Positions 4,395-19,055 of a stretch of 25,009 bases of DNA are shown in pieces. The notes under the pieces are model-generated. The model was given only the letters and a program-made list of their open reading frames with translations, was not told the origin of the DNA and did not search any database. This stretch comes from a virus (taxonomy: Duplodnaviria; Caudoviricetes), in the IMG/VR virus record IMGVR_UViG_3300038336_000023, positions 1 to 25,009 of that record; one strand, 5' to 3'. Position numbers and translations under genes: made by a program. Position 1 is the stretch's first letter; each line of letters opens with the position of its first letter.

Positions 4395-4871
4395 CTACTT
4401 ATTGCCAAAAGGCCACTTAAAAAACTTCTTTTTTTCTTGTTGTTGATCTTGCTTTAGTCTGATTAACTTGGTTAATTTTTCGTCATGGGATTTATTATCG
4501 TTAAGTACATCATCTAATTTACCCTCCAATCTCTGCATTTCTTCCTTAAAAATATTTCTCATAGCCTCCATAAATTCGGCCTGCTGATTTGTTATTGAAG
4601 TATCACAGCTGTGTTGGTCTTGAACAATTAACTCAGCAACAGCCCCATATTTCGATTCCAAGACCTCTTTTATTTCTTCCTGTGACTTTCTCTGCTTAAT
4701 AAGTTTAACAATGTCAATAAGTACGTCTACGCTTCTCTCTGAGTATTTGGGATGCCTGCCGGTCTGCTCGTATTCAAAATATTGTAGATACTCATCTCTA
4801 TAATTATTACTGGTGGACATAGGTATTTTAAGGCCGGACTTCTTAACGATGTCTTTCCATGTGTAAAACAT
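4395..4871 (-). CDS. MerR-like HTH plus coiled-coil protein with C-terminal amphipathic tail (pSK1 Par / DUF3967-like)
   Basis: Start MFYTWKD behind GGGAGG; winged-HTH-like N-terminus (GRHPKYSERSVDVL), coiled coil, ends KKKFFKWPFGNK. Confidence 0.6.
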   Translation of the reverse strand: MFYTWKDIVKKSGLKIPMSTSNNYRDEYLQYFEYEQTGRHPKYSERSVDVLIDIVKLIKQRKSQEEIKEVLESKYGAVAELIVQDQHSCDTSITNQQAEFMEAMRNIFKEEMQRLEGKLDDVLNDNKSHDEKLTKLIRLKQDQQQEKKKFFKWPFGNK

Positions 4872-4882
4872 AGCGATCCTCC

Positions 4883-5356
4883 CTAAAGATAAAATTCCTC
4901 CCATTTGGACTCCTGTTCCGGTTTCCGTTTTTCTTTTTTATTTTTAATTTTTTTATTAAAATTGTTATTTTTAAGATTGTTATTATTAGTGTCTCCATTT
5001 TGGGTATCCCCATTTTCCGTATCCCCAAAACAGGTACACGGTGAGATTTCTAAATTTAATGTATAGATATTATGTCCGAATTTATTTTTGTCACCTATAA
5101 CTTGTTCAACACTTATGTATCCATACTTAATCAAAAGGTTAAAATGCTTGTAGTATCTATTTTTACCCATTACCAAATCATAAATAATTTTTGATACGGT
5201 GGGAAAAGCCGTATTTCCTGAACCAGCATAAGAGCAAAAGTAAGCATAGATTGCCTTTGCTTCCGGCGTTAGTCTCCGATCCTGGGCAACAAGCTTTGGA
5301 TACAAGCCATAACCTTTTGAGTTTATGCCTATTACTTTTAAAAAGTCTGATTGCAT
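4883..5356 (-). CDS. Winged-HTH (HTH_36-like) replication-initiator-like protein
   Basis: YGLYPKLVAQDRRLTPEAKAIYAYFCSYAG...AFPTVSKI...LIKYGYI, then a GDTENGDTQNGDT repeat and Asn/Lys-rich linker as in phage replisome organizers; GAGGGG RBS before ATG 5356. Confidence 0.7.
   Translation of the reverse strand: MQSDFLKVIGINSKGYGLYPKLVAQDRRLTPEAKAIYAYFCSYAGSGNTAFPTVSKIIYDLVMGKNRYYKHFNLLIKYGYISVEQVIGDKNKFGHNIYTLNLEISPCTCFGDTENGDTQNGDTNNNNLKNNNFNKKIKNKKEKRKPEQESKWEEFYL
4929..5031. repeat. Candidate origin 1: three 15-bp-period iterons beside an AT-rich tract
   Basis: GTGTCTCCATTTT / GTATCCCCATTTT / GTATCCCCAAAAC at about 4989-5031, next to a ~60-bp nearly pure AT stretch (4929-4988). Confidence 0.55.
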
Positions 5357-5391
5357 AAAAAATATTCCCCTCTTTTCCAGCAAATTCCTAC

Positions 5392-5420
5392 TTGCGAAGG
5401 GAACTCTCATGTGCTAAAAT
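5392..5420 (+). promoter_or_regulatory. Promoter of counter-transcribed RNA
   Basis: TTGCGA-17-TAAAAT with TG extension, antisense to the leader of the 4883-5356 gene. Confidence 0.65.
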
Positions 5421-5745: not shown

Positions 5746-5904
5746 TCACGATTTTTTGCGAGTGCTTGCGAAATCCTTAAGAACTTTAACAATTAAATTA
5801 TTAAGGCTCCTATTATCTTTAGCGGCGATTTGTTCAAGGTCTTGCTTTAGTGTCTTAGGTAACGTGGTGACATATCTTGTATTTTCTTCTGAAATTTTAC
5901 CCAA
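5746..5904 (-). CDS. Ribbon-helix-helix (CopG/Arc-like) regulator
   Basis: TRYVTTLPKTLKQDLEQIAAKDNRSLNNLIVKVL pattern; TTG start at 5904 behind AGGAGGGTG. Confidence 0.8.
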   Translation of the reverse strand: MGKISEENTRYVTTLPKTLKQDLEQIAAKDNRSLNNLIVKVLKDFASTRKKS

Positions 5905-5940: not shown

Positions 5941-5978
5941 ATCAACTATTGACAAGTATCGCATCAACTTGATATAAT
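5941..5978 (+). promoter_or_regulatory. Consensus sigma-A promoter of the agr-like operon, with repeats
   Basis: TTGACA (5949)-18-TATAAT (5973) with TG extension; ATCAACT at 5941 and 5963; ATCAA-C-TTGAT palindrome over the spacer and -10. Confidence 0.75.
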
Positions 5979-6030: not shown

Positions 6031-6396
6031 TTGAAGAGGATACTGGACTTAAAGAGTATAGTCTTTGCTTGTGTAACATCGGCAGCTTTACTTTATTACT
6101 TAAAGTTAATATTCGATAATGGTAGTTTTACAGTAGATAGCAAGTGGTTGTTTTTAGCATTTGTAATTATGGTTATGTTTTGCTTTGCTTATATGATAGT
6201 TTACATACGAAGGCTGAATAAAACTGTAGATGATATGAAGTTAATGGTTGAAACAATAGTTGAAAATCAACTTGAAGACAGGATAGCGGCAGAGAAATTA
6301 CATAGGAATACCAGGGTTTTGCTTTTAGAGGCAATAGCCGAGGGAGGTTCGAATGGGGGTAACAAAAAAAGAATTAAAGTTATGGGAAGAAAGTAA
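6031..6396 (+). CDS. Two-TM membrane protein with cytoplasmic helical tail
   Basis: AAGGAGG RBS, two hydrophobic helices, then a coiled-coil-like segment; first gene of the agr-like operon. Confidence 0.7.
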   Translation: MKRILDLKSIVFACVTSAALLYYLKLIFDNGSFTVDSKWLFLAFVIMVMFCFAYMIVYIRRLNKTVDDMKLMVETIVENQLEDRIAAEKLHRNTRVLLLEAIAEGGSNGGNKKRIKVMGRK

Positions 6397-6739
6397 TAGA
6401 TTAAATGATTCAACTTTAGCCTATGTGAAAACTTTAGCAAAACAGAAAAAATTAAAATTAATAGAAACCGTACATCACGGATATGATGCTATACTTCTTA
6501 CAAGTGGACTTGAAGTTTACAAGATAGTAGTAAATACAAATGAGTTTAAACTTAACGTATTAGGCAAAAATATGGTTGGAAACGACAAGGATCATTTTCA
6601 CCATATCAAGGACTTCTTTTATAAAGAAGATTCGTGGCTAGAGGCAATCCAATTTGTGGGAGAAATAGTCCAAAAGAAAAGGAGTGAATACCTTTGTCTT
6701 GGCAAACGGTTCTACAGGAAAGCGCGAGAATATGGTTAG
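6353..6739 (+). CDS. Hypothetical soluble protein
   Basis: GGAGGT RBS; 128 aa; overlaps both neighbours. Confidence 0.7.
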   Translation: MGVTKKELKLWEESNRLNDSTLAYVKTLAKQKKLKLIETVHHGYDAILLTSGLEVYKIVVNTNEFKLNVLGKNMVGNDKDHFHHIKDFFYKEDSWLEAIQFVGEIVQKKRSEYLCLGKRFYRKAREYG

Positions 6740-7215
6740 TAAACAGTTGGCTAACAACTTTAACTTATCTAATATGGGTTAAAACAAGTAGTAATATTAA
6801 ATTATCAAAAGGTAAATTGATAATAATTTTTCTTTCATTATCGATTACTCATGCTATATTGAAAACAATAATTCCCGGTATAGCTTTTATATTTTTAATA
6901 TTATTATTTATTTTAATTTCAGTCGCTTCATATAAATTAACAATACTTAAAACTTTAAAAAGCATTTTAAAATTAATGGGCATAATGCTAGTATCTGAAG
7001 TGGTTTTGCATGTTATTGCATTTAAGATTCTAGTCATGCAGGGGAATATTGATAGTGATATAATATTAATAATATCTGGCGTTTTAAACTTATTATTAGT
7101 TTTGATAATTAAAAGAAAGGAGCTGTTAAAAATGGGATTTTTCATATTTGGCGAACCTCAAACAAACACAAAGAAACCTGAAAAGCCAGAAACCGCTACT
7201 AACACCGAGAAGTAA
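6694..7215 (+). CDS. Multi-pass membrane protein (AgrC-sensor-domain-like) with in-frame AgrD-like C-terminus
   Basis: AAGGAGTGA RBS plus TTG; about 4-5 TM helices; no kinase domain. Confidence 0.6.
   Translation: MSWQTVLQESARIWLVNSWLTTLTYLIWVKTSSNIKLSKGKLIIIFLSLSITHAILKTIIPGIAFIFLILLFILISVASYKLTILKTLKSILKLMGIMLVSEVVLHVIAFKILVMQGNIDSDIILIISGVLNLLLVLIIKRKELLKMGFFIFGEPQTNTKKPEKPETATNTEK
7132..7215 (+). CDS. Nested AgrD-like peptide MGFFIFGEPQTNTKKPEKPETATNTEK
   Basis: Internal SD AAAGGAG (7116-7122) 9 nt before ATG; hydrophobic pentamer plus GEP plus charged tail, like clostridial AgrD C-x4-(H/Y/G)(Q/E)P; upstream of the agrB-like gene. Confidence 0.55.
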   Translation: MGFFIFGEPQTNTKKPEKPETATNTEK

Positions 7216-7224
7216 AGTCAACAA

Positions 7225-7255
7225 GATAGGGGCCGTTTCATAGCGGTCCTTTATC
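7225..7255 (+). terminator. Intra-operon stem-loop after the peptide ORF
   Basis: GATAGGGGCCGT...GCGGTCCTTTATC imperfect hairpin with a weak U tract. Confidence 0.55.
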
Positions 7256-7277: not shown

Positions 7278-7640
7278 TTGTACGATACAATTTCCAACTG
7301 GATGCTTATAAAATTAATAAAGGTTAAATATGAAAATTATGATAAATATGATTTTTTAATAAGAGAGATTCTGTGCGAAGGCATTACGGCCATTCTTTGT
7401 ACAGTTATAGCCCTTACGATGGGTACTGTAATCGAAACAATCACGGCAGCAGTAATAATCGTCATTATCGGACAGTTAACTCCACGTAAGCACGCTCACA
7501 GCCTTGAAAGGTGTACTATATACTCTACCTTCGCCATAAGCGGAATAGCCTACATTGCAGTATACTTGCAGAACTATATCACGGTAGCTCTGGCAATGGT
7601 ATTTGCCGGAATAATATCTTTAATATTTATTGAACATTAA
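7278..7640 (+). CDS. agrB: AgrB-like membrane cysteine protease (short, 120 aa)
   Basis: HAHSLERCTIYS matches the AgrB H-A-x-S-x3-C catalytic motif (His and Cys 7 apart, as in S. aureus H77/C84); several TM helices; AAAGGA RBS. Confidence 0.7.
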   Translation: MYDTISNWMLIKLIKVKYENYDKYDFLIREILCEGITAILCTVIALTMGTVIETITAAVIIVIIGQLTPRKHAHSLERCTIYSTFAISGIAYIAVYLQNYITVALAMVFAGIISLIFIEH

Positions 7641-7666: not shown

Positions 7667-7706
7667 TGTCGAAGTTATTGCCACTTGTAGTATTAGTTTG
7701 TAAAAT
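7667..7706 (+). promoter_or_regulatory. Promoter with adjacent Spo0A box
   Basis: TGTCGAA (7667-7673) 4 nt upstream of TTGCCA-17-TAAAAT. Confidence 0.5.
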
Positions 7707-7746: not shown

Positions 7747-7968
7747 TTGCTTGAACATGAAATAAAAAAGGAGAAAGAGAAAATGAAAATTAATTTAGAT
7801 ATGGTCAGGCTGGCAAAAGGATTTACCCTGGATGACGTGTCAAAACAATGCAATATTCCGGTTAATATTATTGTGGAAGCAGAGAAAAATCCTGGCGAGG
7901 CCAAGATTAGTATTGTTAAAAAAATGTTACGACTGTATTCAGTCCCGGCAGATATTATATCGTGGTAA
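7747..7968 (+). CDS. XRE-family HTH protein
   Basis: LDMVRLAKGFTLDDVSKQCNIP...EKNPG...LRLYSVP; the start may be the downstream ATG (MKINLD). Confidence 0.8.
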   Translation: MLEHEIKKEKEKMKINLDMVRLAKGFTLDDVSKQCNIPVNIIVEAEKNPGEAKISIVKKMLRLYSVPADIISW

Positions 7969-7973
7969 TAAGT

Positions 7974-8003
7974 AAAAGCACCGTTAATGGTGCTTTATTT
8001 TTT
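7974..8003. terminator. Bidirectional terminator between convergent XRE genes
   Basis: AAAGCACC-GTTAAT-GGTGCTTT with A/T tracts on both sides. Confidence 0.7.
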
Positions 8004-18275: not shown

Positions 18276-19055
18276 ATGGCAGAAGGTTGGATAAAATTAT
18301 ATCGCCAAATATGGGACAGCGAACTCTGGAAAGAAAGACCTTTTGACAGGGCAAGAGCATGGATCGACTTGATTATGCTTGCCAATTTTGAAAGTAGAAA
18401 TATACTGCTTGGAAATGAAATAATATTTGTCGAGAGGGGCAGTTTTGTCACATCAGAACACAAATTGATGGCTCGTTGGGGATGGTCAAAAACCAAGGTT
18501 CGCTCATTTTTAAACCTTTTACAAAATGATTCAATGATCGTTAAAAAAACCGACCACAAAAAGACCATCGTAGAGGTGCTTAACTACTGCGTTTTTCAGG
18601 ATTTTGAAACCACAGAAGAACCAGAGAAAGACCAGAGAAAGACCAGTAAAAGACCAGTAAAAGACCCAACTAATAATGTAAAGAATATAAAGAATGAAAA
18701 GAATATAGTATCGTCGAACGTTTTCGCCGATGATTCTCTTGAAATAATTTTAGCAAGCGAACTTTTTAATTTAATCCTTGTAAACAATCCAAAGGCAAAA
18801 AAACCAAACCTGCAAACGTGGGCAAAACAATTTGACTTAATTATTAGGATTGATAAGAGAGATATCGACGAAATCAGAACGGTTATAAATTGGACCCAAA
18901 GGGACAGTTTTTGGATGGGGAATATCTTATCGCCAAAAACGCTAAGAAAACAGTTTGATAAACTGACAATCCAAATGCAAAAACAAAAACCAAACGGACA
19001 AGCCAAACCCGAACAAAAAACCTCACCCGACAAATACGAAAACTTTTATCTGTGA
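18276..19055 (+). CDS. Phage replication initiator (replisome organizer)
   Basis: GWIKLYRQI, AWIDLIMLAN, RGSFVTSEHKL; C-terminal FWMGNILSPKTLRKQFDKL as in lambda-O-like C-domains; internal iterons. Confidence 0.88.
   Translation: MAEGWIKLYRQIWDSELWKERPFDRARAWIDLIMLANFESRNILLGNEIIFVERGSFVTSEHKLMARWGWSKTKVRSFLNLLQNDSMIVKKTDHKKTIVEVLNYCVFQDFETTEEPEKDQRKTSKRPVKDPTNNVKNIKNEKNIVSSNVFADDSLEIILASELFNLILVNNPKAKKPNLQTWAKQFDLIIRIDKRDIDEIRTVINWTQRDSFWMGNILSPKTLRKQFDKLTIQMQKQKPNGQAKPEQKTSPDKYENFYL
18616..18707. repeat. Candidate origin 2: five 11-bp iterons plus AT-rich 9-mers
   Basis: AAGAACCAGAG, AAAGACCAGAG, AAAGACCAGTA x2, AAAGACCCAAC (18616-18670), then AAAGAAT(AT/GA) x3. Confidence 0.75.

Follow-up and report, generated by a model that had tools for sequence, protein, structure and literature searches.

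We describe a phage-borne gene of 27 codons that appears to encode a leaderless peptide precursor, located upstream of a gene for an AgrB-family protein. Judged from sequence conservation, the arrangement is a real, conserved variant of agr peptide biosynthesis on phages, and it is apparently undescribed. The genetic case is strong; the chemical case, in which the peptide would be closed head to tail to cyclo(GFFIF), is plausible.

The window, by which we mean the whole stretch of 25,009 nucleotides analyzed, is a linear 25-kb virus record that is 44% complete and encodes a lysis amidase, a repressor/Cro-like pair and Rha. Its sequence was found in four groundwater metagenome runs from one study, and no RNA dataset was listed among the runs containing it. 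The style of its promoter and ribosome-binding sites, together with Atlas neighbours, points to a Bacillota host.

The precursor gene and its relatives

The features of the window that enter the analysis are as follows.

5746..5904, - strand: small divergent ORF, ribbon-helix-helix-like (RHH_5, E 4.5e-4; 20.3 bits, below the curated cut-off of 26)
5949..5978, + strand: consensus sigma-70-type promoter at the head of the module (TTGACA-18-TATAAT, with TG; of 18 sites, no other scored 12/12)
6031..6396, + strand: ORF A (121 aa), carrying two hydrophobic segments plus a soluble tail (no named family; the genes at this position in loci L011 and L013 are 27% and 24% identical)
6353..6739, + strand: ORF B, 128-aa soluble protein (no named family, no LytTR match)
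6694..7215, + strand: ORF C, multi-pass membrane protein (146 aa) with the peptide fused in frame, a fusion seen in the window genome only; candidate receptor or exporter
7116..7122, + strand: Shine-Dalgarno (SD) sequence AAAGGAG of the internal start; its RKE codons are invariant in the close homologues P0006-P0009
7128..7132, + strand: A-run with a one-base frame difference from close relatives that puts ORF C and the peptide in frame (frame comparison and junction check)
7132..7215, + strand: putative gene for a 27-aa precursor without leader (Met, then the core GFFIF at 7135-7149 and the follower GEP...TEK at 7150-7212)
7225..7255, + strand: conserved hairpin between precursor and agrB (-20.8 kcal/mol, z -3.56, 0 of 200 shuffles as good)
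7278..7640, + strand: short AgrB-family protein, 120 aa (PF04647, 34.6 bits against a cut-off of 23; His72 at 7491-7493, Cys79 at 7512-7514)

The ATG at 7132-7134 opens MGFFIFGEPQTNTKKPEKPETATNTEK, with a stop at 7213-7215. The anatomy given in the initial annotation is correct in its elements, as the ATG, M-GFFIF-GEP, a charged tail, the hairpin and a downstream agrB-like gene are all present in the sequence; it overlooked that this ATG is codon 147 of a 173-aa membrane ORF (6694-7215) in the same frame, the peptide in the window genome being also the C-terminus of the ORF C protein. The internal SD had been called strong. The AAAGGAG is indeed there and is a good site, but at -8.2 kcal/mol it is unexceptional: 25 of 538 plus-strand ATGs equal or better it, and it is the weakest among the seven loci described below (the others range from -11.5 to -13.1 kcal/mol). 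It is similar to the SD of ORF C itself (-8.4 kcal/mol). Taken from the window alone, the peptide could be merely the C-terminal tail of a membrane ORF.

We searched for relatives using a DNA motif built from AgrB residues only, the peptide not being part of the query. The motif matched 3 viral, 18 metagenome and 1 species-genome stretch. From these 22 matches and the window, 11 were AgrB-like by score, and they represent seven distinct loci (window included). Chance accounted for 11 of the 18 metagenome matches, which were removed by profile score; the single match among 185,579 species genomes was likewise rejected as chance, having internal stops. The AgrBs of the seven loci form five lineages at 29-39% identity, two of which are pairs (94% and 83%).

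All seven loci carry an SD-led ORF of 23-28 aa of the form M-G-x3-F-(L)G plus a charged tail, followed by a hairpin and agrB, with the precursor 62-138 nt upstream of agrB. The cores are GFFIF, GGFYF, GGWFF, GFLFF, GIWIF (twice) and GCWYF, each followed by G or LG. Met1, Gly2 and Phe6 are invariant (7/7), and so is Gly7 with a one-residue insertion in two loci, L017 and L023, where ring size is ambiguous (GIWIF before LG or GIWIFL before G). Three synonymous codons encode Gly2, and core positions 2-4 differ between loci. Ser, Thr and Lys are absent from every core, and the sole Cys (position 2 in L018) is Gly in its 94%-identical sister; as far as these sequences indicate, no side-chain nucleophile is conserved in the core. 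The hydrophobic core and charged follower beside agrB (tail hydropathy -1.2 to -2.2) are as in AgrD, and ring position 1 is Gly in 7/7 and not the Cys or Ser of AgrD. Pro occupies follower position 3 in two of the seven, and PxxP occurs in the window peptide only.

An amphipathic N-terminal leader was found in none of the loci. The peptide frame closes 6-16 codons upstream in all six other loci and the peptide is unfused there, so no leader is possible in these; in the window only the ORF C fusion lies upstream. Three of the six lack any upstream start, and the other three have one inside or just before the SD, 9 or 21 nt upstream. The relation of peptide to ORF C also varies: fused in the window, separate from the membrane ORF in L011, L013 and L018, overlapping it in the +2 frame in L014, L017 and L023, and probably in the +1 frame in P0006-P0009. 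We conclude that the peptide is evidently a gene of its own, leaderless by design, and that the 27-codon ORF is, on comparative grounds, a conserved precursor gene with its own ribosome-binding site; conservation speaks for the proposed start at 7132.

The leaderless, Cys-less M-G form that the initial annotation had expected beside agrB-like genes is therefore kept in 7/7 distinct loci, and the alternative it had allowed for, a degenerate copy of a Cys/Ser AgrD, finds no support, since no homologue has a leader. Two of its expectations failed. None of the 6 other sequenced loci has the follower motif [GHY][EQ]P (they read GKP, GLV, GKA or LGK), and short agrB homologues are not the general context, the short form being restricted to the window lineage (others 170-190 and 197 aa). 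Overall, the genetic premises of the initial annotation hold. It had listed as fatal a lack of initiation at 7132, a motif not conserved next to agrB homologues, and homologues that all retain Cys/Ser and a leader; two of these three, as examined, do not refute it, and its chemistry belongs with the proposals discussed below.

The N-terminal peptide motif alone is not diagnostic and returns mostly noise: an agrB-like neighbour was present for 2 among the 120 viral matches listed (about 210 estimated), and the stricter GEP pattern gave 0 of 8 viral matches. None of six peptides matched TIGR04223 at E <= 5, a model for which two of three canonical controls passed the cut-off, and none of three relatives' peptides nor the window peptide matched PF05931; for both models the short length lowers sensitivity. 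Protein-seeded locus searches recovered no relatives in viral contigs, metagenomes or species genomes, and a second AgrB motif and an ORF C motif each recovered only the same phage. No close relative turned up among GenBank phages and plasmids; the weak AgrB matches were Brevibacillus phages and canonical controls. At the search sensitivity used, species genomes yielded no member of the clade.

The fusion, the enzyme and the five-gene module

Four Logan homologues of ORF C (55-62% identity) terminate in another frame. At the junction, the +1 frame of the window reads NGIFHIWRT and resembles the tails of these relatives, which places the frame difference in the A-run at 7128-7132. The junction is gapless and letter-identical in contigs from three of the four runs (the fourth is without cover; all belong to one study, and one run is possibly the source). 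Given this agreement, an assembly error was considered unlikely; the fusion is thus probably a local frameshift and a real local allele. We also considered ORF C as the leader of the peptide and rejected it because the peptide is unfused in the six other loci. In P0006-P0008 the +1 frame is compatible with M-G-x4-GEPQANTKK, and in P0009 with M-(S/N)-x4-x-(K/R), that is, with Ser or Asn and not Gly after Met; these residues are those that the protein sequences of the relatives would permit.

In a fused copy the N-terminus would be blocked and ring closure would be impossible. Alternatively, the family could be functional and the window allele broken or rewired, yielding little free precursor, with the tail serving chiefly as a ligand or substrate tethered to the membrane protein. 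The in-frame fusion, the weakest SD of the set, a hairpin without a full U-run and an AgrB of only 120 aa are all in keeping with such a loss. We nevertheless regard it as improbable: P0002 and P0003, about 75% identical, also have the short AgrB, the SD is on a par with that of ORF C, none of the five genes is disrupted, and three runs contain the allele.

PF04647 was detected at E <= 0.01 in all 13 clade members, and H72 and C79 are invariant in the 13 sequences (H-x6-C, with spacing x5 in P0015). On the basis of this profile and the His/Cys dyad, we assign the window enzyme to the AgrB family. It spans profile positions 4-118 of 185 and has four predicted helices, and it is thus not a full-length AgrB of about 185 aa with the six helices described for S. 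aureus; the AgrBs of the six other loci are 170-197 aa. Another clade member, P0016 (Logan, 125 aa), is also short and has 25% identity to the window enzyme. Truncation to the catalytic half may have occurred more than once. Among viral models, the fold matched best was that of a phage AgrB (prob 0.98, TMq 0.67, E 0.87), and a comparison of the window AgrB model with the PDB gave no match. The seven AgrBs may have a single origin, but the branch joining them lacks firm support (48/78 in one tree, 89/97 in another).

The hairpin shows two-sided changes at 5 of 10 consensus pairs across the seven loci. The hairpin likely sets a high ratio of precursor to enzyme. A search of Rfam returned nothing over threshold. 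Where the membrane gene and the precursor are separate, another hairpin stands between them (L011 3168-3189, and similarly in L013 and L018), so that the precursor mRNA there is flanked by two stems.

A 12/12 promoter site also precedes the ORF A counterpart in L011. In that locus a perfect 11-nt inverted repeat, CCTCCTTTCTT and AAGAAAGGAGG (2002-2040), flanks the -10 box, one arm lying inside the promoter spacer and the other forming the ORF A SD; it is a possible operator. In the window, the SD of the ribbon-helix-helix-like ORF is about 30 nt upstream of the -35 box of the module promoter, which this protein possibly regulates.

The window, L011 and L013 each have the full order ORF A, ORF B, ORF C, precursor, hairpin, agrB, and the other loci agree with it to the extent of their contigs. 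This kinase-free five-gene module was seen only in viral or phage-like contigs. PF14501 (AgrC-type kinase) and PF04397 (LytTR) matched in 0 of 2 phage records, which are 44% and 66% complete. No convincing Pfam, NCBIfam, PHROG or PDB match was obtained for ORFs A-C, and profile comparison of ORF C with two AgrC-type sensor regions and with the membrane proteins of phage Davies revealed no similarity. Six ORF C residues are invariant across 11 sequences (S18, K39, H53, F65, F67 and E102); its predicted fold is poor (pLDDT 53.6) and its Atlas neighbours are unnamed Bacillota clusters. Upstream of the module, L011 (1380-1968) and L013 (2145-2715) carry a second pair consisting of a one-helix membrane ORF and a distant ORF B paralogue, which suggests that proteins of the ORF A and ORF B types work in pairs.

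The neighbourhood of the module varies. In the window it adjoins a repressor switch, and in other loci it lies next to what we take to be tail-like and recombinase-like genes. Between the lysis genes and the module, the window has two overlapping ORFs (4395-5410, - strand), one HTH_36 replication-initiator-like and one with a weak MerR-like coiled-coil; the HTH_36 ORF ends in WEEFYL, resembling the phage replication protein at 18276-19055 (YENFYL). An additional HTH gene follows agrB (7747-7968, + strand) with its own promoter-like site at 7678-7706, and converges with the repressor across a bidirectional terminator at 7975-7996.

Proposed maturation of the peptide

We propose that the 27-codon ORF would be translated separately from its own ribosome-binding site, and that the host would remove the formyl group and then the initiator Met to leave a free Gly amine. 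The AgrB-family protein would cut the precursor after Phe6, the predicted cleavage site, via an enzyme thioester, and the Gly amine would attack this thioester directly to give cyclo(GFFIF) without a thiolactone. The exported product would serve as a phage-to-phage signal read by the kinase-free ORF A/B/C proteins. For the core of this proposal (Met removal, AgrB cleavage after Phe and direct attack by the Gly amine), the sequences tip our judgement slightly in favour.

The peptides are in the same register as leader-bearing AgrD controls (C-AYIF before HQP and C-IWYL before YQE); in this register Gly aligns with the Cys, and Phe with the residue at which the follower is cut off. Because no side-chain nucleophile is conserved, the N-terminal amine is the only nucleophile shared by the family. 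Gly specifically is a favoured context for MetAP after Met. More generally, MetAP is described as taking off Met before small uncharged residues (PMC3154147). AgrB removes the follower with a His/Cys dyad via a thioester acyl-enzyme that is normally released by the AgrD Cys (PMC10482373), and the invariant His72 and Cys79 correspond to the His77/Cys84 dyad given in that source. Molloy 2021 named a direct-lactam route (ii) and rejected it for clostridial AIPs on account of the conserved Cys and late leader removal (PMC8251862); neither objection appears to apply to the phage family, which lacks both the Cys and the leader. For PatG, PCY1 and AEP it is established that an amine attacks the acyl-enzyme of a protease (PMC4979651).

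Several observations count against the ring. An amine attacks more slowly than a thiol, and a ring of five residues is strained, so hydrolysis may win. The short four-helix AgrB, the weakest SD, the fused copy, the ring ambiguity of L017 and L023, and the Ser or Asn of P0009 also weigh on this side. Processing in S. aureus needs an amphipathic leader and the follower residues E34 and L41 (PMC10482373), and the phage precursor has no leader and a Lys-rich tail. Deformylation is described as co-translational (PMC13515050), and a chain of 23-28 residues may escape it.

If hydrolysis did win, the AgrB-like protein would be a plain protease or exporter, and the signal would be linear GFFIF or formyl-MGFFIF released by the cut after Phe6. 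AgrB products slowly hydrolyse to linear forms and formylated N-terminal AgrD fragments exist (PMC10482373), the precursor offers no thiol for fast trapping of the acyl-enzyme, and such very short chains may evade co-translational processing. A linear or formylated product is the foremost rival and a serious one, but we consider it less likely than the ring, as the invariant Gly at the Cys position and the five-residue spacing to Phe (7/7) are less simply explained by it, unless the receptor demands them, and a thioester-forming cyclase would be an odd choice for mere release. Alternatively, Met could be deformylated and retained, its amine closing the six-residue cyclo(MGFFIF). A six-residue clostridial ring, CWFWSY, is known (PMC8251862), L017 and L023 indicate that core length may vary, and the larger ring would be less strained. 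We give this little credence, because the invariant Gly fits selection for Met removal and the Met-Gly start falls within the MetAP preference noted above (PMC3154147 for small residues). The peptide might also not be an AgrB substrate and function in its full-length form, for instance by binding the membrane and inhibiting ORF C or AgrB, in line with the lack of an AgrD model match and a Pro at follower position 3 in only two of seven peptides. Its fixed place beside agrB, the AgrD-like core-follower layout, the invariant Phe-Gly junction and the intact dyad make this highly improbable.

Returning to direct lactam formation, we put forward a broader reading, tentatively and at somewhat less than even confidence: the phage AgrB clade may be a true head-to-tail macrolactam cyclase that needs no leader, leader peptidase or cysteine, Met excision by the host alone priming the substrate, with each lineage's cyclo(G-x-x-x-F) dialect read by a kinase-free three-protein membrane unit. 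If so, it would offer cyclic-peptide phage communication and a two-gene route to cyclic pentapeptide libraries. Direct lactam formation by AgrB was set aside in the clostridial AIP work for want of a Cys-free, early-unblocked substrate (PMC8251862), and the family described here offers six natural core sequences of this type with cognate enzymes. Should the proposed chemistry be true, it would add a maturation route for RiPPs and a compact means of making strained cyclic pentapeptides, and would point to a phage signalling system with a kinase-free readout. Were the product linear, the family would still contain an AgrB working without leader or ring.

Comparison with known systems

Our literature search covered open sources and found no report of a leaderless Gly-type AgrD; the accessible parts of PMC10885120 and PMC11953309 describe none. 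In the literature searched, the direct head-to-tail route for AgrB is proposed and never shown. The phage peptide appears to be AgrD-like in role, yet it is without the defining features of AgrD, namely the leader, the Cys or Ser and a TIGR04223 match.

The clostridial cAIPs, represented by Rc-AIP1 of Ruminiclostridium cellulolyticum (PMC8251862), share with the phage family an AgrB-family enzyme, a short aromatic core before a charged follower and, as predicted for the phages, a homodetic ring product. Rc-AIP1 is described with a leader, a conserved Cys, a thiolactone and an S-to-N shift, whereas the phage family has neither leader nor conserved Cys and has Gly after Met. The phage arrangement would fit route (ii), which the Rc-AIP1 authors rejected. 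The staphylococcal agrBDCA system (PMC10482373) has the same His/Cys dyad and a five-residue core with a bulky hydrophobic end. In contrast to it, the phage loci have no amphipathic leader or thiolactone Cys, the window AgrB is 120 aa, and no AgrC kinase or AgrA/LytTR is found on the two incomplete phage records.

Among phage-borne systems, agr3 of the Clostridioides difficile phage phiCDHM1 (PMC3901668) also combines agrB with a small precursor gene. It has a 45-aa AgrD and an HATPase-containing AgrC, whereas the window has a 27-aa precursor and three unrelated small proteins. The same source mentions agr-like cassettes of the Brevibacillus phages Davies (gp44-48) and Emery (gp53-57). These resemble the module described here in being kinase-free phage cassettes with orphan membrane proteins, an AgrB and a Cys-free precursor whose follower starts with G-x-P. 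Unlike it, their precursors are 38-39 aa, keep an N-terminal leader and lie 3' of agrB. They also have a weak LytTR-like gene (E 0.0074), the Davies membrane proteins have no similarity to ORF C, and their AgrBs form a branch separate from those of the seven loci. In the Davies (L155 4019-4138) and Emery (L156 3470-3586) precursors, ring position 1 is Ala by the Pro+3 register.

PatG, PCY1 and AEP (PMC4979651) provide a chemical parallel to the predicted step, in that an N-terminal amine attacks an acyl-enzyme after follower cleavage. As enzymes they are not related to the AgrB family, and it is proteolysis of a leader that frees their N-termini, whereas in the phage family Met excision would serve that purpose.
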